Positions 2,831-24,592 of a DNA stretch of 51,167 nucleotides are shown here, piece after piece. Each line of letters opens with the position of its first letter. Within the stretch, counting starts at the first letter, position 1. Source of the DNA: Melioribacteraceae bacterium (GTDB lineage: Bacteria; Bacteroidota; Ignavibacteria; Ignavibacteriales; Melioribacteraceae); the NCBI GenBank assembly GCA_027013735.1, contig JALWGH010000076.1, forward strand, positions 1 through 51,167. The letters are read 5' to 3'. The notes beneath the pieces are model-generated. The model worked only from the letters and a program-made list of their open reading frames with translations, was not told the DNA's origin and made no database searches. Position numbers and translations under genes: made by a program.

Positions 2831-3445
2831 TTAGTCTCCCCCGTAAATTTCGTCGTAATCTTTAATAGCCGCTTGAATAACCTTAAAAGCATGCTCTTTC
2901 CCGAAAACGGTTTCGATTGAAAATTTATTCTCTTCGCCGGGAATCAATTTGTAAGTTGTAAAATAATGTTGCAGGCGTTCAACCAAAACATCTGGAAGTT
3001 CGGAAATATCGGTAATGTTTCCGTAAATATTGTCGTTTTTAAGTACGGCAATTATTTTGTCGTCTGCCTCGCCGTGGTCAATACCTTGTAAACCGCCAAC
3101 AACACGTGCACGTAAAATAATCTCTCCGCGAGAAATCGGTCGCTCGCTAATTACGCAAATGTCCAATGGGTCGCCATCGCCCTTGCCTGCTTTGGGATTT
3201 AGCTCCCCTATTCTTTCACCGCAGTAAGTTCTGGGAATAAAACCGTACAGTGCAGGTGGGTGGGAAGAACTTCTCTGGGGACGGTCAACGTGAATGTAGC
3301 CGGTGCTTTTGTCCACTTCGTATTTCACGAAATCAAATGGTGTAATTTCGATGTAGGCATTAACAATTTCCGGTGGATTCTCTCCAACCTCCAAGCCATG
3401 CCAAGGATGCGGTCGCCAACGGTAGAATGATTTTGGAAAAGCCAT
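2831..3445 (-). CDS. ppa: Inorganic pyrophosphatase (family I)
   Basis: [18 protein letters not shown]...[10 protein letters not shown]...DDKIIAV are typical family I PPase motifs. Confidence 0.9.
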
Positions 3446-3464: not shown

Positions 3465-4244
3465 TTAAAAATTTAATTCAATCCCGACCGGACAATGGTC
3501 GGAGCCCATTACTTCGGGTAGTGTGAAAGCATTAGTAATGTTTTCTCTTAAGTTTTCCGAAATGAAAAAGTAGTCTATTCTCCACCCAACATTCCTTTCA
3601 CGTGCGCGGGTGATAACGTCCCACCATGTGTAAATTCCGCCTTCGTCGGTGAATAGCCTCAGTGTGTCTAAAAAGCCGTGGGCAAGCAGCTTGTCAATCC
3701 ACGCCCGTTCTTCGGGTAAAAAGCCGGACGTCTTTTGATTTGCTTTCGGTCTCGCCAAATCAATTTCCTTGTGAGCGGTATTAACGTCGCCGCAAACGAT
3801 AATGCTTTTGCCTTCGTCTTTTAGCTTTAAAACGTAATCGAGGAACGCTTCGTAAAAGTCAAGCTTGTATTGTAGCCGCGTGTGGTCCCTTTTGCCGTTG
3901 GGAAAATAGACATTTAAAAGTGTAAACTCGGGATATTCGAGTATCAGCGTTCTTCCTTCGTTGTCAAACTCTTTGACTCCTAACCCTTTTAACACATTTA
4001 CGGGAACGGGTTTTGAATAGACTGCAACGCCGCTGTACCCTTTTCTCTCTGCTTGATTAAAATACGATTTGTAACCGTCGATGTTCGTGATGTCTTTATT
4101 TAATTGCTCAATCCAAGCCTTTGTTTCCTGAAGACAAATAATATCAGGGCTTTCCTTTAACAGCCATTTCACAAAACCTTTTTTCACTATCGAGCGAATT
4201 CCGTTTACATTCCACGAAAGCAGCTTCAATTTTTCTCCTACCAA
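3465..4244 (-). CDS. xth: Exodeoxyribonuclease III (AP endonuclease family 1)
   Basis: [13 protein letters not shown]...ICLQETK...GDVNTAH...SDHCPV motifs; 259 aa. Confidence 0.9.
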
Positions 4245-4493
4245 AAAATATTGTTAGCTTAAATTTAAGAAATAGTGTAATGGTAAAAAAGAAATTTTAG
4301 CTTTTATCTTATAACAGATGTTTGAAATATGATTCAAGGAAGATTTTTAGCATTTTGTCTTAGTTATGTTAAAAAATTCTTTCCATTATGCCAGAAAACA
4401 ATATGGGAAACTTTAAATTACCGATAAGTCCCGGTGTTTGTCGGATGGATTGACTTGAGGGTTGGTAATACAATTTAATACCTGTGTATTTGT

Positions 4494-11988: not shown

Positions 11989-12039
11989 GTTTTAAATAGT
12001 GTCAAGAGGGCTTTTAGCGAAGCCTTGATTTTTACAACA

Positions 12040-15000
12040 ATGAGTAAAAGCAATTTAAAATTGTTTTTTCTTGCGTTGTTAATTCACGCTAATGTTGCAG
12101 GACAAACGCGCGATTCGCTAATATTTACGGAGGTGATGTTTCGTCCTTCCGCCGCAAACTCCGAATTTATTGAGTTGTTTAATCTCTCTTATTCCGATTC
12201 CGTTGACCTAAAAGGCTGGAGTGTTAAATATCACTCTTCGAAAAAAGATTTTTTAGATTCTTTAACAATTGGGAAAAAATTATCTCCCCGTAGCTACGCT
12301 GTTGTTTTTGAAGGCGACTACGATTTTGAAAACGGCGTTTACAAAAATCTGATTCCCGTGGACGCATTGGTTTTAAAAATTTCGGACAACGCTTTTGGTT
12401 CTTCGGGAATGTCAAATTCGACAAACAGAACACTGCTGTTGTTTGCACCGAACGGCGAGGTTGTTGATTCTTGTGAATACACTGCGGACAACAACGCCGG
12501 ATATTCCGACGAAAAAATATTATTAGACAAAGGCGACTCATCGGACAATTGGGCAAACTCAAAAATGTTTAACGGCACGCCGGGAAATCGCAATTCGGTT
12601 AGCCCGTGGGATTACGATGTGGGGATTTCGTCTATTAAAATTTTTCCGGAAAAGATTTTTGTAAACGATACGGCAAGAACGGAAGTAAAAGTTTTTAATA
12701 AAGGGTTACACGCTGCAAATAATTTTAACGTTTCCATTTACACATCGAAAGATTCCGTTAATTACAATTTAATTTTTGAGCAGACGGTTAACGAGATTGA
12801 CCCAAACGATTCTGTCTCTCTGAGTGCGCGGTTTGTTGCCGGGCAGTCAGGTAAAGTCTTTTTGAAATCAGTAATTAGCTTTAACAAAGATCAGAATAAT
12901 ACAAACGACACTACTTCAGCATTTTTTGAGGTCAGACCTAAACCAAATAGCAGGGGCGATGTGGTAATTAACGAATTAATGTACAAACCGAAGCAAGACG
13001 AACCAGAGTGGATTGAACTTTACAACCCAACACAAAGTAAAATTAATCTAAAAGGCTGGGAAGTTAGAGATAAAACAAGTAAGACCGATTTGTCCGATAC
13101 TTCAGTCTTTATTGATGCAGGCGGATATGTCGTTTTTTCGAGGGACACGCTCTCATCCAATTATTTAGGCAATTTTAAAACCGTAATAATCAATTTACCT
13201 TCCTTAAACAACTCTGGCGACAGGATTGTTTTGCTTGATTCCCTCGGGCAAACAATCGACTCGCTCGAATATTACGCCGACTGGGGAGGCGGAACAGGAC
13301 TTTCTCTTGAAAGAGTTAGTGCTGCAGGGGAAACAAACAACCCCGAAAATTGGGGAACGTCGAAAGGCAATTACGGCGGTACTCCGGGCAGACTCAACTC
13401 AATTTCACCCAAGAAATTTGACCTTGCCATTCAAACGTTCGACTCGGATCAAAAATTCATCGAATACCAACACGAATTAAAAACATTCGTAATAATTAAG
13501 AACAAAGGTTCGGAAGACGCTAAGAATGTAATGTTAAAAATTTACCTCGATAAAAATAAAGACAACTTTCCTCAAAACAACGAGGCTCTTGATTCACTAA
13601 TAATAACGGGGCTTTCATCGGCTGATAGTGTGGAAAAGTCAATAATATTAAGTGATTTGCCTCTTGGTAAAAACACTTTGATTTCTTCTCTTGATTTTGC
13701 TAAGGATGAATTCCCTGACAATAATATTGCCGAATTGGAAGTGAACATCGTTAAATTTGCGGCGGAGAAAGGGGACATCGTGATTAACGAAATAATGTAC
13801 GCGCCTGTAAACGGCGAACCTGAATGGATTGAACTGTTTAATAAAAGTAACAAGGAAATAAATTTGCAAAAATGGTTTGTCGGGGACAATTTACACAAAG
13901 TTACGTTAAGTGAAGAGAGAGCAATTGTTTTACCCGGAAAATATTTTTTGCTTGCGAAGGATTCATCATTTTTAGATTACCACAATTTAACTTCCGGAAT
14001 TACATTTGTGGAGTTCCCGTCATTGAACAATGCCGGGGATGCTGTTGTGATTAAAGATTCGCTCGACCGCTTAATTGATTCGGTTTATTATTCTTCCGCC
14101 TGGGGAGGCACAAAAGGAAAATCATTGGAAAGAATTTCTGCATTTGCGGAAGGTAAAGATTCTACGAACTGGAGCTCTTCAGTTGCAAAAGCAGGCTCAA
14201 CTCCCGGAAAAATAAATTCTGTTTCACAAAAAGAGTTTGACCTTTGTCTTGAAGAACTCACAGCAAGCAAATCTTATTTTGCAGTTAGTTCAAAAATTGA
14301 ACTAAATGCAAAAATAAAAAATTTAGGAATCGAGCCGGCTGAGAGCGCGTCTCTGGATTTTTATTTTGACGGGAACAAGGACGACAAAATTACCGCTGAC
14401 GAATTTATTAAATCGGTTGCGCTGCCCGGCATAGGTTTTGGCGACAGCCTAAAACTGACGGTCGATTTAAATGAATTGCCCGTCGGACAAAATAAAATAT
14501 TCTCGGTTATTAATTTCCCCGAAGATCAGTTTAACGATAATGATACCGCAAGTGTTGTTGTAAACATCGTAAAAATAAATGTTGACAAACAAGACGTTGT
14601 TGTAAACGAAATAATGTTTGCGCCGACGGATGGCGAGCCAGAATGGGTTGAGTTGTTCAACAAAAGCGAAAAGGAAATAAATCTTAGTAATTATTATCTT
14701 GGAGACAATTTCTCTTTTGCAAATCTTGTAAAAAGTAATTTGTTGTTAGAACCACAAGGCTATTGTGTAATAGCAAAAGACTCTTCCATTTTTGATTTTT
14801 ATTCAATTAACAGCAAAGTTCTTGTTACTTCTTTTCCGAATTTGAACAATGGCGGAGACGAGGTTGTTTTGAAAGATTCTCTTTTCAGAACAATTGATTC
14901 GGTAAAATATTTCTCCACTTGGTTGAAGAAAAACGGTCAATCGCTCGAAAGAATTTCGCCGGCACAAAGTTCAACCGATTCGGCTAACTGGGGAACTTGT

Positions 15001-17496
15001 GTTTTGAAACAGAAAGGGACCCCGGGGACACTTAACAGTATTTCAAAGAAAGATTTTGATGTGGCAATTGATTCGGCGTGGGTCTTTCCGGATTTAGTGG
15101 AAGCAGGCAAATCCTTTGGCTTAAAAGCAGTGGTTAAAAATGTCGGAAAAAACAAAATTGCTTTTACTGTGAATGTTTACAAAGATGAAAACGGAGATTC
15201 AATTGCTGACAAACAAATGTACGCTTCAGCTTTATTTAGTTTGGCTTCCGATTCATCAATGTTGGTTTCACTCAATAATATCAGTGCTTTGAACGCCACA
15301 ACAGATTTAATCGTGAAGTTAAACTGTACGGAAGATATGAACCTTGCTAACAACAAGTATTATTTAACCGTAATTCCAACGTTTAAGAAAAACTCAATCA
15401 TAATAAGCGAAATAATGTTTGACCCTTCGGGCGATGAGCCCGAGTGGATTGAGTTGTTTAACAACAGTACGGATACTGTTAATCTAAAAGGCTGGAGCAT
15501 CTCGGACGTTTTGGCAACGCCTTCGAAAACAATAATTACAAAAGAAGATTGTCCCTTGGCTCCGAAAAGCTATTTGGTAATTGCAAAGGATTCTTTAATT
15601 TTTAATTATCACAAAACAATTCCCTCGAAGGTAATAGTAATTCCTTTTGCAAATTTAAATAACACGGAAGACGGAGTAGTATTAAAAGACGGGGCTTTAA
15701 CAACCGTAGATTCGGTTAAGTACTGTGATTATTGGCTTGAAAAGGAAGAGCACTCCATTGAAAAGAAAGATTTTAATTTAAATTCCACATCCGCTTCAAG
15801 TTGGGGAACTTCCGTTGACAAAGAGAACAGCACGCCGGGTAGAATAAACAGCATCCAAATAAATATTAAAGATTTAATAGTAACGGACATTTTCACCGAA
15901 CCGGCATTTCCTTTAAGAAACAGTGATATTAACATTAAAGTAAAAGTGTTAAATCGTTCTAAAGAAAAAATCAATAATGTTTTGTTAAAGACTTTTGTTG
16001 TTGATAACGGAGAAAGGTTGTTTGACTCACTACGTATTACAAATATTAAGGGAGGCGATTCTCTAATAATATCAACGCAAAACAAGTGCCACATTGTCGA
16101 TTCGCTTAAAATAAAGGCTGAAATAAACTGCGCCGCTGACGAGAACCCTTTTAACAACTCCCTGACAAAAACTGTTTTTGCAGGTGTGGATAAAAACACG
16201 ATTCTTATTAGCGAGTTTTTAGTTTTGCCCGATACAAACGAAACACAGTGGGTAGAGTTTTACAACAACTCGGGTGCGGAAATCGACTTAAAGAATTGGA
16301 CGATTACGGACGTGCGACCGGAGGAGAAAGAAAAAACACTCGTTTCTCAGTCCACAATAATTAAGGCAGGTGAATACTTTGTTGTTAGCAGGGACACGTT
16401 GCGTAATACATCCGAGAGTGTGAAAGAATTTGTTGTTAATTTTGGTAACTTAAGTTCAAAGGAAGACGGAATAGTGTTACGGGATTTTCGCGGGCAAACA
16501 ATTGACAGTCTTTACTACACCACCAACTTTCCAATTGTGCGTGGTCGTTCGGTGGAAAGGCGTAGTTTTAACGACTCAACGAACAATGTGAGCAACTGGC
16601 TATTTTGTTTGGACAGGGAAAGAAACACTTTGGGGAAGGTAAACTCTGTTTTCCAACTCACCCCGGCTGAGAAGAAGTCGGTCGTAATAAATGAAATAAT
16701 GTTTGAAACTTCACAAGACTTTCCCGAATATTTGGAACTAACCAATGTCTCTAAAAACCCCGTGGATATTGGCGGTTGGAGTTTAATAATCGGGAAAGGC
16801 AATAAATACTGGCTTTCCGGCGAACGCTTAAGTTTAAATCCCGGCGGCTATTTTGTTTTTGCTTCGGATTCAAACATCTTCGACCGTTTCGGAATTTCCC
16901 CAAAAAGCAAATTTGTTTCTGTTTCCAATAGCAACTCTTTTTCTTTGTCGAACTCCGCAGACGCCGTTGTGATTAGAGACGCATTTAATAATGTAATTGA
17001 TTCGGTTTACTACAGTGGTTCTTGGTGCAACAATAATATTTTGAACACGAAAAACAAATCCCTGGAAAAACTAAATCCTCTTTTTGAAAGCAACGACAAA
17101 ACAAGTTGGAGTACTTGCGTTGACGCAAGAGGTGGAACGCCCTTGAAGAAAAACTCCGTGTTTACGCCTTTGAAAAAAGTTTCTTCGGGATTAAGTATTT
17201 TCCCAAATCCGTTTTCCCCGGACGAAGACGGGCACGAAGATTTTACGGTACTTGCTTACAAATTTAGAACTCCTGTTGTGCAAATACGCGCGAGGGTGTT
17301 CGACGACCACGGCAGACTTGTGCGAACGTTAGCGGTTAACAAGGCATCTTCGGGCGAAGGTAAAATTGTCTTTGACGGCAGGGACGATTCCGGCGCTACG
17401 CTTAGAATGGGAATGTACATTGTGTTTATTGAGGCTGTGGGAGCGCAAAACAAAACGCTCGAAACATTGAAAGAAGTTGTGGTAATTGCCCACTAA
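12040..17496 (+). CDS. Giant secreted protein: 7 lamin-tail-domain (LTD) repeats interleaved with Ig-like (CARDB-like) domains, plus a FlgD-Ig/T9SS-like C-terminal domain
   Basis: Signal peptide MSKSNLKLFFLALLIHANVAGQ (ATG 12040; the track starts at TTG 12025). The motif (V/I)INEIM(Y/F)xPxxxEPEWIEL(F/Y)N...L(K)GW recurs starting near nt 12118, 12961, 13777, 14596, 15397, 16201 and 16681. Each repeat ends in GTPGxxNS. C-terminus FPNPFSPDEDG...GMYIVFIEA. Confidence 0.8.
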   Translation: MSKSNLKLFFLALLIHANVAGQTRDSLIFTEVMFRPSAANSEFIELFNLSYSDSVDLKGWSVKYHSSKKDFLDSLTIGKKLSPRSYAVVFEGDYDFENGVYKNLIPVDALVLKISDNAFGSSGMSNSTNRTLLLFAPNGEVVDSCEYTADNNAGYSDEKILLDKGDSSDNWANSKMFNGTPGNRNSVSPWDYDVGISSIKIFPEKIFVNDTARTEVKVFNKGLHAANNFNVSIYTSKDSVNYNLIFEQTVNEIDPNDSVSLSARFVAGQSGKVFLKSVISFNKDQNNTNDTTSAFFEVRPKPNSRGDVVINELMYKPKQDEPEWIELYNPTQSKINLKGWEVRDKTSKTDLSDTSVFIDAGGYVVFSRDTLSSNYLGNFKTVIINLPSLNNSGDRIVLLDSLGQTIDSLEYYADWGGGTGLSLERVSAAGETNNPENWGTSKGNYGGTPGRLNSISPKKFDLAIQTFDSDQKFIEYQHELKTFVIIKNKGSEDAKNVMLKIYLDKNKDNFPQNNEALDSLIITGLSSADSVEKSIILSDLPLGKNTLISSLDFAKDEFPDNNIAELEVNIVKFAAEKGDIVINEIMYAPVNGEPEWIELFNKSNKEINLQKWFVGDNLHKVTLSEERAIVLPGKYFLLAKDSSFLDYHNLTSGITFVEFPSLNNAGDAVVIKDSLDRLIDSVYYSSAWGGTKGKSLERISAFAEGKDSTNWSSSVAKAGSTPGKINSVSQKEFDLCLEELTASKSYFAVSSKIELNAKIKNLGIEPAESASLDFYFDGNKDDKITADEFIKSVALPGIGFGDSLKLTVDLNELPVGQNKIFSVINFPEDQFNDNDTASVVVNIVKINVDKQDVVVNEIMFAPTDGEPEWVELFNKSEKEINLSNYYLGDNFSFANLVKSNLLLEPQGYCVIAKDSSIFDFYSINSKVLVTSFPNLNNGGDEVVLKDSLFRTIDSVKYFSTWLKKNGQSLERISPAQSSTDSANWGTCVLKQKGTPGTLNSISKKDFDVAIDSAWVFPDLVEAGKSFGLKAVVKNVGKNKIAFTVNVYKDENGDSIADKQMYASALFSLASDSSMLVSLNNISALNATTDLIVKLNCTEDMNLANNKYYLTVIPTFKKNSIIISEIMFDPSGDEPEWIELFNNSTDTVNLKGWSISDVLATPSKTIITKEDCPLAPKSYLVIAKDSLIFNYHKTIPSKVIVIPFANLNNTEDGVVLKDGALTTVDSVKYCDYWLEKEEHSIEKKDFNLNSTSASSWGTSVDKENSTPGRINSIQINIKDLIVTDIFTEPAFPLRNSDINIKVKVLNRSKEKINNVLLKTFVVDNGERLFDSLRITNIKGGDSLIISTQNKCHIVDSLKIKAEINCAADENPFNNSLTKTVFAGVDKNTILISEFLVLPDTNETQWVEFYNNSGAEIDLKNWTITDVRPEEKEKTLVSQSTIIKAGEYFVVSRDTLRNTSESVKEFVVNFGNLSSKEDGIVLRDFRGQTIDSLYYTTNFPIVRGRSVERRSFNDSTNNVSNWLFCLDRERNTLGKVNSVFQLTPAEKKSVVINEIMFETSQDFPEYLELTNVSKNPVDIGGWSLIIGKGNKYWLSGERLSLNPGGYFVFASDSNIFDRFGISPKSKFVSVSNSNSFSLSNSADAVVIRDAFNNVIDSVYYSGSWCNNNILNTKNKSLEKLNPLFESNDKTSWSTCVDARGGTPLKKNSVFTPLKKVSSGLSIFPNPFSPDEDGHEDFTVLAYKFRTPVVQIRARVFDDHGRLVRTLAVNKASSGEGKIVFDGRDDSGATLRMGMYIVFIEAVGAQNKTLETLKEVVVIAH

Positions 17497-21364: not shown

Positions 21365-22243
21365 TTATTTTCCGGAAAGTTTTTTGCAGAGGAATTCCAG
21401 CGCTTTTACAAATCTTGGTCCGGGACGGAAAAACAAATCGGGATTAATTTCGTAAACACTGCCTGTTTTAATGGCGTTCAGGTTTTTCCACTCGGGGAAA
21501 AGTTTCAGTAAACCCGAAGTGTCTTTGATTTTTCCTTCGGGTAAAATAATAACGTCGGGATTGTCTTTTAGAATTTCTTCCCTTCCGAAAACCGGGTAAT
21601 TCAATGGCGAAGAGTCCGCAACGTTTTTTAAATTACAAAATTTGAGATATTCGTTAACGAAAGTGTTTTTTCCCGCAAGCATTAACGGACTCAAAGAAAC
21701 AACGAACATTGCCTTTAATTTGTTTTTGCTTTTTCGCTCTTTGCGGATTTTTTCAACCTGTCTGTCCCATTGGCTAATAATTGAATCGGCGTGTGCGCTG
21801 TCGTTAAAGATTAAAGCGAAATCGCGGAAGGTTTTTTTTATTCCTTCATAATTTCTCGGGTTAGAAACAAATATTTTGAAGCCTAATTTTAGAAGTCTTT
21901 CGTACGTGCCTTTTGTGTTTCCTTCAACGGTCATAAATATTAAATCGGGTGAAAGACCGATTAGTTTTTCGTAATTGACCGAGAACAAGTCCCCGACCTT
22001 TGTTTTATTTTTTGCTTCCGGCGGGTAATTGCAATAAGTTGTGTTTGCAATTATTTTGTCCCCTTCCCCCAATGCAAACAGCATTTCGGTTAAGTTAGGC
22101 GCCAATGTAACAACACGTTTTGGAATTTCGGAAATACGGATTTCATTTCCCAAATCGTCTTTAATTACCTTTGCGTCAAGAGAAAAATTTGCAAGACTTA
22201 GAAGCGCGACGGAGAAAAGAAATAAAAGCGTTTTGATTTTCAC
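21365..22243 (-). CDS. ABC transporter periplasmic substrate-binding protein (BtuF/siderophore class)
   Basis: Signal peptide, then PKRVVTLAPNLTEMLFALG...PDLIF...NPDVIILP, typical of cluster A-II binding proteins. Confidence 0.7.
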   Translation of the reverse strand: MKIKTLLFLFSVALLSLANFSLDAKVIKDDLGNEIRISEIPKRVVTLAPNLTEMLFALGEGDKIIANTTYCNYPPEAKNKTKVGDLFSVNYEKLIGLSPDLIFMTVEGNTKGTYERLLKLGFKIFVSNPRNYEGIKKTFRDFALIFNDSAHADSIISQWDRQVEKIRKERKSKNKLKAMFVVSLSPLMLAGKNTFVNEYLKFCNLKNVADSSPLNYPVFGREEILKDNPDVIILPEGKIKDTSGLLKLFPEWKNLNAIKTGSVYEINPDLFFRPGPRFVKALEFLCKKLSGK

Positions 22244-22328
22244 GAAGACAACCGGAATTTTTAAAGAAAAATAAACCTTAAATCTAATAATATTTTGAAA
22301 TTTTTATTCATTGATTTATTTTTGCGGT

Positions 22329-22401
22329 GCATCCTTAGCTCAGTTGGTAGAGCATCTGACTCTTAATCAGCAGGCCGGGGGTTCGAGTCCCCCAGGATGC
22401 A
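22329..22401 (+). tRNA. tRNA-Lys (anticodon CTT)
   Basis: Acceptor GCATCCT/AGGATGC; D arm GCTCAGTTGGTAGAGC; anticodon loop CTCTTAA; T arm GGGGGTTCGAGTCCCCC; discriminator A. CCA is not encoded. Confidence 0.9.
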
Positions 22402-22407
22402 CACCGG

Positions 22408-22432
22408 AGCCTTGTAAATCAAGGCTTTTTTT
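22408..22432 (+). terminator. Rho-independent terminator after tRNA-Lys
   Basis: agccttgTAAATcaaggct followed by T7. Confidence 0.8.
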
Positions 22433-22539
22433 ATTTCCAAACTTTTTGCCCGGAATTCCGCAGTGGAATTTCGGGTTTTGTTTTATTGGGATTATTTTTC
22501 ATTTTAAAGACTGCTGTTCAAATGATTGTTCAACATATA

Positions 22540-22730
22540 GTAGGGGACGCAAAGTTTGCGTCCCCTACAACAGATAGATTAATTGTTCGTAGCTCGTAGG
22601 GACAGCTCGTGAGCTGTCCCCATGATGAGAAACAAATTAAAATTTTAACCGTGGAGACAACTTGCAAGTTGTCCCTACCAATCACGTTATCGTTCAACAG
22701 CCGTAGGGACAAGTCGCGACTTGTCCCTAC
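22540..22730 (+). repeat. REP array, 4 units upstream of the RAYT-like gene
   Basis: Palindromes at 22540-22568 (gtaggggacgcaaagtttgcgtcccctac), 22596-22621, 22651-22678 and 22703-22730 (gtagggacaagtcgcgacttgtccctac). The first and fourth units are preceded by a ...gttcaaca... linker; the second has only a weak version and the third none. Confidence 0.85.
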
Positions 22731-22764
22731 GATTTATTGACAAAGAAAAACAGGGTAAAACAAA

Positions 22765-23406
22765 ATGAAAAACAGAAAACCAAACAGGTTGCCGTTTTTC
22801 GATTATTCAAATCCCGCATGGTATTTTGTTACCATTTGCACGAAAAATCACATTCAACATTTCGGCAAGGTTCAAAACGGAAAAATGATTTTAAACCAAT
22901 TTGGGAAAATTGTTGAGAATGCGTGGAATTGGCTTAGTGAACAATATGATTATTGTAAATTGGACGAATACGTAGTTATGCCAAATCATTTTCATGGGAT
23001 AATTATTATTGACCCAGAATTTAATCAAAATAAGCGTAGGGACAGCTCGCGAGCTGTCCTTACAATCCACAATAACATTCAACAGAATAGTAGGGACAAC
23101 TCACGAGTTGTCCCTACAAATTACGTTAACATTCAACAGGAACGTAGGGACAAGTTGCGACTTATCCCTACGAAAGAGGCAACAAAACACATTAAAATTA
23201 AATCTTTATCTGAGTTGGTTGGGGCATTTAAAACAAAATCCTCTAAAGAAATTCACCTTGCGGGTAATCCCCATTTCAAATGACAGCGGTCTTTTTTCGA
23301 CAGGATAATCCGCAACGAGAGGGAATTGTACAACATCAGAAATTACATTCAACAAAATCCGTTGAAATGGGAGATTGAAAAAGGAGTAGAAAATTTAGAT
23401 TTTTAA
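22765..23406 (+). pseudogene. REP-associated tyrosine transposase (RAYT, IS200/IS605-like Y1 HUH family), interrupted by an in-frame TGA at 23281-23283
   Basis: N-terminal part YFVTICTKNH...VVMPNHFHGIIII (HUH motif). After the TGA, the same frame continues QRSFFDRIIRNERELYNIRNYIQQNPLKWE to TAA 23404-23406. This carries the family C-terminal (W)QxxFxDxIIR...YIxxNP segment with the presumed catalytic Tyr. Confidence 0.7.
23035..23170 (+). repeat. Three REP units inside the RAYT-like reading frame
   Basis: Units begin at 23035, 23089 and 23143, an exact 54-nt period. Each is a GTAGGGACA...TGTCCCTAC-type palindrome. The second and third are preceded by aacattcaacag. Confidence 0.85.
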
Positions 23407-23455
23407 TTAACAAATATTCCACGTGTTTAAATGGAAAAAATGTTGATGTTCAAAT

Positions 23456-23532
23456 GTAGGGGACGCAAATTTTGCGACCCCTACAGATTAAGTTAACGTT
23501 CAGTAATGGGACAGCTCGCGAGCTGTCCCTAC
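23456..23532 (+). repeat. REP array, 2 units downstream of the RAYT-like gene
   Basis: gtaggggacgcaaattttgcgacccctac (23456-23484) and gtaatgggacagctcgcgagctgtccctac (23503-23532). Confidence 0.8.
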
Positions 23533-23638
23533 AAATACCATCTCAAACACAACCAAAATCCACGCATCCCTAATTTTTCAATTAGATTTTCCTTATTTTC
23601 GAGTTGTGAAATTTGAATATTAAACCGGAAAAGGACAG

Positions 23639-24592
23639 ATGAAAGTAACCGAACATCTTGATAAAGCAAAAGAACCCTTAATCAGCTTTGAAATTATTCC
23701 GCCCAAACGCGGCGGGGATATTCACCAATTGCTCAGTGTTCTTGAGGACATTGTAAAATACAATCCCCCGTTCATCGATATTACCAGTCACGCTGCCGAG
23801 ATTGTTTACGAGGAAACAAAGAACGGCGAATTCCAAATGAAAGTAAAGCGCAAAAGACCAGGCACTTTGGGCATTTGCGCATTGATTCAAAATAAATACA
23901 ACATCGACGCCGTTCCGCATGTTATTTGCCACGGCTTTACAAAAGAAGAAACAGAAGACTTTTTAATTGAGCTGCGCTACCTCGGAATAGACAACGTTCT
24001 TGCCGTCCGCGGGGACGAAAGTTCTTTTGACAAACCGGTTAAGTACGGGCGCAGTGTGAACAAATACGCCGTTGACCTTGTGCGTCAAATAAACGATTTG
24101 AACCACGGAAAATATTTGGAAGATTCTTTGTTAAATGCCGATCCGATGAACTTTTGCATTGGCGTTGGCGGTTACCCGGAAAAACATTTCGAAGCGCCGA
24201 ATCTAAAAACCGACATTAAATTCACAAAGGAAAAAGTTGACGCCGGGGCGGATTACATTGTTACGCAAATGTTTTTCGACAACCAAAAGTTTTACAATTA
24301 CGTGGAGCTTTGCCGCGAGGAAGGAATTACCGTGCCGATTATTCCAGGCTTAAAAATAATTACATCCAAACAACAAGTAACGTCTCTACCCAAGAATTTT
24401 TACATTGATTTGCCGGACGAACTTGCCGAGGAAATTCTTGAAGCCAAGCCCGAACACGTAATTGACATCGGCGTTGAGTGGGCTCTTAAACAGACCGAGG
24501 ATTTGCTCAATCACAATGTGCCCGGAATACACTTTTACATAATGCAGAACTCCGGTCCCATTAGCCGCTTAATGAAAAAACTTAATTATTGA
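23639..24592 (+). CDS. metF: Methylenetetrahydrofolate reductase
   Basis: ISFEIIPPKRG...DITSHA...LAVRGD...YPEKH...GADYIVTQMFFD pattern; 317 aa. Confidence 0.88.
   Translation: MKVTEHLDKAKEPLISFEIIPPKRGGDIHQLLSVLEDIVKYNPPFIDITSHAAEIVYEETKNGEFQMKVKRKRPGTLGICALIQNKYNIDAVPHVICHGFTKEETEDFLIELRYLGIDNVLAVRGDESSFDKPVKYGRSVNKYAVDLVRQINDLNHGKYLEDSLLNADPMNFCIGVGGYPEKHFEAPNLKTDIKFTKEKVDAGADYIVTQMFFDNQKFYNYVELCREEGITVPIIPGLKIITSKQQVTSLPKNFYIDLPDELAEEILEAKPEHVIDIGVEWALKQTEDLLNHNVPGIHFYIMQNSGPISRLMKKLNY

Follow-up and report, generated by a model that had tools for sequence, protein, structure and literature searches.

In-frame REP hairpins with a 54-nt period in the linker of a probably inactivated RAYT-like gene of subclass 2.4 type

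Three REP hairpins lie in frame, exactly 54 nt apart, inside a RAYT / TnpA_REP-like gene of the window (here, the whole stretch of 51,167 nt of DNA that was analysed), within the linker that joins strand beta3 to helix alphaC of the encoded protein. The hairpin observation is real and statistically robust. With a probability of about 0.78, we read the locus as a REPtron of TnpA_Y1 subclass 2.4 in which in-frame REPs are tolerated in a loop, the period has been filtered by coding and the gene copy was recently inactivated. In-gene REPs were already published in 2018 as a hallmark of this subclass, to which the window adds a new member that has three hairpins and is probably inactivated. Our analysis demonstrated the anatomy of the locus, the pattern across the family, the codon-phase rule, the disorder of the loop in the structural models and the stop codon.

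The Y1 HUH superfamily was classified by Quentin, Siguier, Chandler and Fichant in 2018 (BMC Genomics 19:475, PMC6006769), and TnpA_Y1 subclass 2.4 of that classification is RAYT Group 4 of Bertels et al. 2017 (PMC6006769). Its members carry the motifs NH[IFV]H, WQ and YIxNNP without a C-terminal extension, together with a highly variable beta3-alphaC insertion and double-foot REPs of the form GT[AG]G...C[TC]AC (PMC6006769). Compared with other subclasses, alphaB is also extended at its end by an insertion of 8 aa (PMC6006769). In-frame REP insertions inside the tnpA_REP genes of this subclass were described in the same study, in which the inserts are viewed as peripheral and probably neutral (PMC6006769); a text search of the literature found no later paper about in-gene REPs. 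The TnpA_REP of E. coli cleaves and recombines REP/BIME single-stranded DNA (ssDNA) in vitro (PMC3333891), and REPs that are perfect palindromes co-evolve with their enzymes, the GTAG guiding the choice of cleavage site (PMC8266576). GTAG-tagged REPs were also treated by Di Nocera et al. 2013, who reported sporadic intragenic REPs in other genes (PMC3733652). By analogy with the enzymes of E. coli, Stenotrophomonas and Marinomonas, all of other subclasses, the enzyme of the present locus type may act on the hairpins described below as type A. The biochemical demonstrations of binding, cleavage and rejoining of cognate REP ssDNA come, to our knowledge, from enzymes of other subclasses.

The database homologues of the window gene numbered 6348, several of them named "REP element-mobilizing transposase RayT" by their sources, and the closest named RAYT homologues came from Melioribacteraceae and Ignavibacteria MAGs. 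Once the insert was removed, the protein matched Pfam Y1_Tnp at 30.6 bits (cutoff 23), and it matched the NCBIfam family REP_Tyr_transpos (REP-associated tyrosine transposase) at E = 3.7e-17. A profile search also matched 4ER8, the TnpA_REP of E. coli, with an alignment spanning profile positions 66-164. An E. coli-type TnpA_REP was nevertheless rejected as the identity of the gene, as the NCBIfam equivalog NF047646 reached 62.5 bits against a cutoff of 80 and both the motifs and the REP type differ. Structures were modelled with AlphaFold2 for the truncated window ORF (pLDDT 79 overall, core >95) and for an intact homologue, P0004 (pLDDT 85.7). The best PDB matches of the P0004 model in Foldseek were the ISDra2 and IS608 TnpA proteins and E. 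coli TnpA_REP (2xm3, 2vjv and 4er8, at E = 1e-5 to 5e-5). Homology and fold thus support the designation of the window gene as a RAYT-like Y1 HUH gene, the units being its putative REP hairpins. The parts of the gene are as follows.

22765..23407, forward strand: RAYT / TnpA_REP-like Y1 HUH gene of subclass 2.4 type, interrupted by TGA
22981..22998, forward strand: codons of the HUH motif PNHFHG (residues 73-78) with H75 and H77
23011..23205, forward strand: beta3-alphaC linker, residues about 83-147, holding three REP units and modelled as disordered
23281..23283, forward strand: TGA in place of the codon for W173, the WQ-motif Trp that is invariant in 36/36 aligned homologues
23344..23346, forward strand: codon of the predicted catalytic Tyr Y194 (RNYIQQNP), 3' of the premature stop

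The called ORF (22765-23283) encodes 172 aa, carries PNHFHGIIII and ends at TGA 23281-23283; past this codon the frame reads QRSFFDRIIRNERELYNIRNYIQQNPLKWEIEKGVENLDF and is otherwise open to the natural stop at 23405-23407. M72, P73, H75 and H77 are invariant in alignment A1, as are Y194, I195 and N198. The WQ position is present in the window gene, with Q174 conserved and TGA as the Trp codon. In the original prediction the hairpin units were placed after the HUH motif and before the C-terminal WQ...Y segment, and this placement is supported.

Hairpins were searched for with a type-A pattern, GTAGGGACA-N10-TGTCCCTAC, which describes a GTAG...CTAC palindrome of 28 nt. A second hairpin type (type B), GTAGGGGACGCAAAnTTTGCGnCCCCTAC, occurs at 22540 and 23456. 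The hairpins of the locus are listed below.

22540..22568, forward strand: type-B double-foot REP hairpin (GTAGGGGACGCAAAGTTTGCGTCCCCTAC) with a perfect 13-bp stem, the outermost unit upstream
22596..22623, forward strand: type-A REP hairpin U1, core AGCTCGTGAGCT, with a degraded foot
22651..22678, forward strand: type-A REP hairpin U2, core AACTTGCAAGTT, with GTGG as its 5' foot
22703..22730, forward strand: type-A REP hairpin U3 (GTAGGGACAAGTCGCGACTTGTCCCTAC), perfect, with the ATG 35 nt downstream
23036..23063, forward strand: in-gene REP hairpin G1, codon phase 2, peptide RRDSSRAVLT, one G.T mismatch in the foot
23090..23117, forward strand: in-gene REP hairpin G2, codon phase 2, peptide SRDNSRVVPT, perfect 13-bp stem
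23144..23171, forward strand: in-gene REP hairpin G3, codon phase 2, peptide RRDKLRLIPT, one C.A and one T.G mismatch
23456..23484, forward strand: type-B REP hairpin 3' of the gene, with one A.A mismatch
23505..23532, forward strand: type-A REP hairpin D1, 3' of the gene, its 5' foot degraded to AATG

Seven matches to the type-A pattern were observed, against 0.02 expected from shuffles of the window, and G1, G2 and G3 depart from the pattern by 1, 0 and 1 mismatches, respectively. The exact 54-nt spacing claimed for three in-frame units inside a transposase-like gene was confirmed, both by the pattern matches at 23036, 23090 and 23144 and by Tandem Repeats Finder, which reported a repeat at 23036-23171 with period 54, 2.5 copies, 79% matches and 0 indels. 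The starts first assigned to the units (23035, 23089 and 23143) are the first bases of codons, and the hairpins themselves begin at 23036, 23090 and 23144, so that in all three units the G of GTAG is the second base of its codon (codons CGT AGG GAC, the first being CGT, AGT and CGT in the three units). When 23026-23185 was folded as single-stranded DNA, exactly three hairpins formed, at -34.3 kcal/mol (z = -9.4). The six flanking hairpins lie at most 230 nt from the gene ends and are of the GTAG...CTAC type with 13-bp stems. Their spacing is irregular, as had been claimed, at 56, 55 and 52 nt upstream; the downstream value, previously given as 47 nt, was measured as 49 nt. No copy of type A or type B was found beyond the RAYT locus in the rest of the window.

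The insert is translated without a stop codon, and the translation originally quoted for it is correct. In the AlphaFold2 model of the window ORF, residues about 91-147 have a pLDDT of 46-57 and no secondary structure, and this stretch is flanked by the HUH strand (residues 75-82) and a helix (residues 148-165). The P0004 model agrees, with residues 88-126 of low confidence and the remainder at about 95. The insert is accordingly modelled as a disordered loop, the outcome that structure prediction had been proposed to check. A second proposed check, the alignment of homologues, returned a linker that varies in length and encodes hairpins. Variable length is seen in the HUH-to-WQ segment of the best 120 homologues, and the linker comprises 70 codons in the window and 14-106 codons in the family (median 38; 153 genes).

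The DNA examined for the family comprised 80 loci of GTDB genomes, from Bacteroidota, Ignavibacteriota, Patescibacteria, Chloroflexota, Cyanobacteria, Planctomycetota, Poribacteria and others, and 80 loci of metagenomes. With a hairpin defined as a perfect stem of at least 8 bp within the linker, 61/75 GTDB genes and 69/75 metagenome genes carry one; pooled, across more than 15 phyla, a hairpin is present at the same protein position in 130/153 genes (85%). One hairpin is found in 107 of these 153 genes, two in 19 and three in 4, the window gene included. The possibility that most intact relatives have no in-gene hairpins is contradicted by this sample. The commonest in-gene form is a double-foot hairpin of 28-29 nt, with a 13-bp stem that includes the GTAG and CTAC feet and a loop of 2-3 nt; the stem sequence varies by lineage and its changes are fully compensatory. 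In the closest intact homologue (L081) the hairpin is the same as that at 22703 in the window (U3), in phase 1 and as a single copy. L082, also among the closest intact homologues, carries the U3 hairpin inside its gene as well.

The linker peptides of the best 120 homologues (VGTSRDLSLQ, RRDRSRPVPT, VGNGRDRSLQ, VGDAKFASPT and VEDIRPLQ, among others) are the two readable translations of GTAG...CTAC palindromes. For example, GTA GGG ACA AGT CGC GAC TTG TCC CTA C is translated as VGTSRDLSL and, after a one-base shift, as xRDKSRLVPT. Among perfect 13-bp double-foot hairpins, the GTAG was in codon phases 1, 2 and 3 in the ratio 45 : 21 : 0; phase 3 is never used because GTAG there reads TAG. The same 28-nt hairpin can be found in either phase, and the genes that share it are 54-78% identical (mostly about 63%) in their flanking coding sequence. 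Because identical hairpins sit in both phases of diverged genes, the conserved entity is the DNA palindrome and not the peptide.

A coding constraint on the period, one of the two explanations first offered, is borne out by these data in that only the two phases avoiding TAG are used, and that the upstream spacings of 55 and 52 nt would put TAG in frame if they occurred inside the coding sequence: from a hairpin in phase 2, a step of 55 nt brings the next GTAG into phase 3, with an in-frame TAG. Other in-gene arrays likewise have periods that are multiples of three, at 81 nt (L029), 66 nt (L019) and 42 nt (L080). The extragenic array of L029, by contrast, has 14 units spaced 27-28 nt apart. 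The most plausible source of the 18-codon period is a coding filter acting on REP arrays that would otherwise drift. Array growth was probably by tandem duplication, and the 54-nt period is best explained by tandem duplication of 3n lengths combined with this filter.

The age of the array bears on a competing reading, in which the 54-nt array is a by-product of decay, i.e. a recent tandem duplication in a dead gene whose in-frame period is coincidental. Such an origin would accommodate the nonsense codon of the window gene and the mismatches in G1 and G3. Over the whole unit, however, G1 and G2 are 78% identical and G2 and G3 65%, so that the window array is not a recent triplication, and the view that the units are too different for a very recent duplication (they differ by 22-37%) is upheld. 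The frame is moreover open across the three units to the natural stop, the single TGA excepted; one to three hairpins are present in frame at this very site in intact homologues; and in the upstream sister array, where coding imposes no constraint, the spacings are not multiples of three. The decay reading is largely refuted by the homologue data and we consider it extremely improbable. Of the scenario that the original prediction had set against itself, a decayed copy was found, with TGA at the invariant Trp; a short fixed linker and near-identical recent units were not.

The two arrays of the locus share some of their order. G2-G3 is collinear with U2-U3, with identities of 78% (U2) and 70% (U3), which equal or exceed those among the in-gene units, and a U2-U3 step of 52 nt, and the spacer AAnnACGTTAnCnTTCAACAG is conserved between them; for unit 1 the two arrays show weak collinearity. 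This pattern is no more than a hint that part of the array was copied as a block from one place to the other, upstream array or gene, or that both derive from one array. A CRISPR array was considered and rejected: the stems differ with compensatory changes, the spacers are related (69% identity between those of G1 and G2) and a conserved ORF contains the whole array.

The end of the called ORF at TGA 23281-23283 had gone unmentioned in the original prediction. As 8 of the window's 33 other long ORFs end in TGA, this codon is a normal stop in the genome, and a recoding of TGA as Trp was rejected. Recoding is also countered by a TAG at the Trp codon of one of two other stopped loci. Since the nonsense codon at the invariant Trp precedes the catalytic Tyr, and TGA is a normal stop, the window copy is probably inactive; it is most likely a recently inactivated gene with a single nonsense lesion before its predicted catalytic residue. 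The TGA could instead be an assembly or sequencing error, or a leaky stop (the next base is C). A stop at the Trp codon recurs in the genome sample, in L018 (TGA) and L002 (TAG) besides the window. Among the 80 metagenome loci, none has a stop at the Trp codon and one is stopped at another codon; in view of the lack of recurrence in this second sample, a programmed stop at the Trp codon was set aside.

The favoured reading, of REPs tolerated in frame in the loop of a subclass 2.4 enzyme, would operate as follows. REPs would proliferate around the gene of their enzyme, and the beta3-alphaC surface loop would be the one permissive site within it, where in-gene REPs would be translated as a disordered linker. 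Two filters would then apply, namely that GTAG...CTAC can be read without TAG in only two codon phases and that arrays must add multiples of 3 nt. In a working gene only in-frame variants, typically 3n tandem duplications, would persist, whereas extragenic arrays would drift freely. The hairpin DNA would be held constant and the encoded peptide left free to change, with the palindrome under the same sequence constraint as the other cognate REPs, either as a still recognisable substrate or because it is kept uniform with its family. The window gene would later have gained the nonsense at its invariant Trp codon, two of its three in-gene hairpins being mismatched. We infer that the insert is tolerated rather than functional.

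Several features of the family could look like more than passive tolerance, namely the 85% prevalence, the mostly perfect palindromes and the identical hairpins in diverged genes. The in-gene REP might be a conserved cis-acting part of the gene, as a master copy co-inherited or transferred with the enzyme and/or as a self-targeting site that limits it, which we think unlikely. As an outright rival to tolerance, i.e. a selected cis-element serving either as a heritable master copy or as a site of self-ssDNA binding or cutting that limits expression or copy number, we rate it as more doubtful still. Selection of this kind would fit the retention of the hairpin at one protein position in 85% of 153 genes from many phyla, and the 32/61 GTDB loci in which the in-gene hairpin has no matching copy within +/-4 kb. 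It would also fit hairpins that are 100% identical, in both codon phases, where the flanking coding sequence is about 63% identical, and the excess of perfect over imperfect in-gene hairpins (91 vs 22 of 113). Against it, 23/153 genes have no hairpin, with linkers down to 14 codons, and 14 of these were scored as intact ORFs, so that the hairpin is not essential. The variation in copy number (0 to 4) and in placement within the loop resembles turnover; in-gene copies that were simply renewed from the genomic REP pool, or were subject to its constraints, would be expected to show the same conservation; and Quentin et al. 2018 read the inserts as peripheral and probably neutral (PMC6006769).

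The hairpins might alternatively act in the mRNA, as regulators of translation or stability of the enzyme, i.e. as an autoregulatory linker. Each unit would also form a stable RNA hairpin, and transcribed REPs of other bacteria affect mRNA decay or termination (PMC3733652). The mismatches of imperfect in-gene hairpins point the other way, being G.T in 4 cases, A.C in 11 and other in 12; without G.U-type enrichment on the sense strand, a structure in the sense RNA is not indicated. No T-run follows the hairpins. A Rfam scan of 21800-24000 found only the tRNA, with weak matches of miRNA families on the hairpins far under their gathering scores, and no Rfam family corresponds to the units. Perfect DNA palindromes, alike on both strands, fit recognition as ssDNA better, and we judge a role in the mRNA to be very unlikely.

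Judged by its sequence, the locus is a TnpA_Y1 subclass 2.4 REPtron whose Trp codon has mutated. It shares with the subclass the Y1 HUH endonuclease fold, an HuH motif (NHFH) that fits NH[IFV]H, a Y motif (YIQQNP, residues 194-199, read past the stop) and the variable beta3-alphaC insertion, here modelled as a peripheral extension. It also lacks a C-terminal extension, as only 14 residues follow the NP of the Y motif in the window protein when read past the stop. Double-foot REPs flank the gene within +/-1000 nt and REPs are inserted in the gene without breaking its frame, and the distribution is patchy over many phyla. The layout of the flanking hairpins is the classical REPtron arrangement, found in 29/61 GTDB loci, where the same hairpin lies about 40-100 nt before the start codon and/or directly after the stop. 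The window copy differs from the subclass in having a stop at the Trp of WQ, three in-gene hairpins (4/153 genes sampled) with an exact 54-nt period and a second, bracketing hairpin type (B). Its YIQQNP also departs from YIxNNP in having Q at the fourth position, as in the closest homologues P0002-P0004.

The E. coli REPtron and its TnpA_REP (subclass 2.2; 4ER8; Ton-Hoang et al. 2012, Messing et al. 2012) have in common with the window locus the Y1 HUH fold and GTAG-footed REP hairpins flanking the gene; the E. coli enzyme binds, cleaves and rejoins REP ssDNA in vitro, and the profile and fold searches of the window gene match its structure. The E. coli REPs, however, are bulged, single-footed and imperfectly palindromic, whereas those of the window type are perfect double-foot palindromes. 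The E. coli protein has DHLH, WE and YIHYNP and a C-terminal tail where the window has NHFH, (W)Q and YIQQNP, and its gene has no internal REP where the window gene has three. TnpA of IS200/IS605 (subclass 1.1) is similar in its catalytic fold and in the subterminal hairpins that border its gene and are recognised as ssDNA. Its motifs are DH[VI]H and Y[IV]ENQ, its elements are multicopy with defined left and right ends, and it is without internal hairpin copies and without the beta3-alphaC insertion (PMC6006769, Table 1). An IS200/IS605 transposase was rejected for the window, in which the motifs differ and only one copy of the gene is present. Intragenic REPs and RPEs (Rickettsia palindromic elements; PMC3733652) are GTAG-tagged palindromes in ORFs that are translated in frame. 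They are single or clustered, encode 20-82 aa, presumably in permissive loops, and are sporadic in unrelated genes such as uvrA, recB and dnaE (PMC3733652). In the window, by contrast, the REPs sit in the gene of their own enzyme, at an insertion site that is conserved throughout the subfamily.

The locus is an ordinary, probably inactivated member of a described subclass, and the count of 85% of 153 genes extends the 2018 description in numbers and adds nothing new in kind. Its value is that non-coding selection can be seen cleanly within a coding sequence: the need for an open frame allows only two codon phases and 3n lengths, and the palindrome is constant while the peptide is free. Should the in-gene hairpin be functional, this would bear on the persistence and co-evolution of RAYT-REP pairs.

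The type-B hairpins bracket the RAYT locus. A tblastn search found no second RAYT gene in the window to match them; in another RAYT subfamily, with P0086 and P0107 as examples, the type-B sequence is itself the hairpin within the gene, translated as VGDAKFASPT.

In the genome sample, in-frame stops were found only at one shared codon of the RAYT family, that of the invariant Trp of the WQ (Trp-Gln) motif located upstream of the catalytic Tyr, and the genes of the window, L018 and L002 are intact apart from this stop.

Stops at the WQ Trp codon
Window 23281-23283, TGA, in the RAYT-like gene of the window
L018 4487-4489, TGA, in a Candidatus Uhrbacteria MAG
L002 4415-4417, TAG, in a Chitinophagaceae MAG

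The base that follows the stop is C in all three, and C as the next base is the weakest termination context. None of the 80 metagenome loci has a stop at the WQ Trp codon; one of them carries a stop, but at a different codon. TGG has a high nonsense mutability, and the shared stops may be the product of chance together with this mutability, or may represent a recurrent off-switch for the enzyme.

Two metagenome loci, L114 and L161, have Phe at the position of this near-invariant Trp (LFQRNYWE and VFQRSYYD, respectively) in otherwise intact genes, so some lineages can evidently do without a strict requirement for Trp here.

A stronger example of free extragenic spacing versus 3n spacing within the gene is the Poribacteria locus L029, where 14 tandem REPs immediately upstream of the gene are spaced by 27-28 nt, whereas three near-identical units inside the gene follow an exact period of 81 nt (27 codons); the regions of the two arrays are about 3560-3945 and 4300-4480.

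The window REPtron, i.e. the RAYT gene with its flanking cognate REP hairpins, lies directly 3' of a tRNA-Lys(CTT) gene, and a metF-like gene follows at 23639. This tRNA-adjacent site may reflect an insertion hotspot. Two hairpins of a second REP type (type B) enclose the locus, outside the type-A (GTAG...CTAC) units.

Features around the window locus
22329-22402, tRNA-Lys(CTT) gene
22404-22432, terminator-like hairpin with a T-run, after the tRNA gene
22449-22475, 10-bp hairpin CCCGGAATTCCGCAGTGGAATTTCGGG, after the tRNA gene and the terminator-like hairpin
22540-22568, type-B hairpin
23456-23484, type-B hairpin

In another RAYT subfamily (proteins P0086, P0098 and P0107), the type-B sequence forms the hairpin inside the gene, where it encodes the peptide VGDAKFASPT, and a tblastn search found no type-B RAYT gene in the window. 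B-like hairpins also adjoin the genes of the closest intact homologues, L081 (2958-2987) and L082 (about 3130-3158); in both, the internal hairpin of the gene is of type A.

L082 also contains a second small palindrome, CGCGTTTACCCGACGCG, within the loop of a type-A hairpin. This nesting is found at two places (2376-2426 and 2813-2850), once in the upstream flank and once in a unit inside the gene, and one hairpin element appears to have been inserted into another.

Elsewhere in the window, an AT-rich hairpin unrelated to the REPs (TTTTGCAGTTAGTTCAAAAATTGAACTAAATGCAAAA, 14277-14313), whose 17-position stem has 16 pairs and one mismatch, sits within an ORF of 1823 aa (12025-17496).
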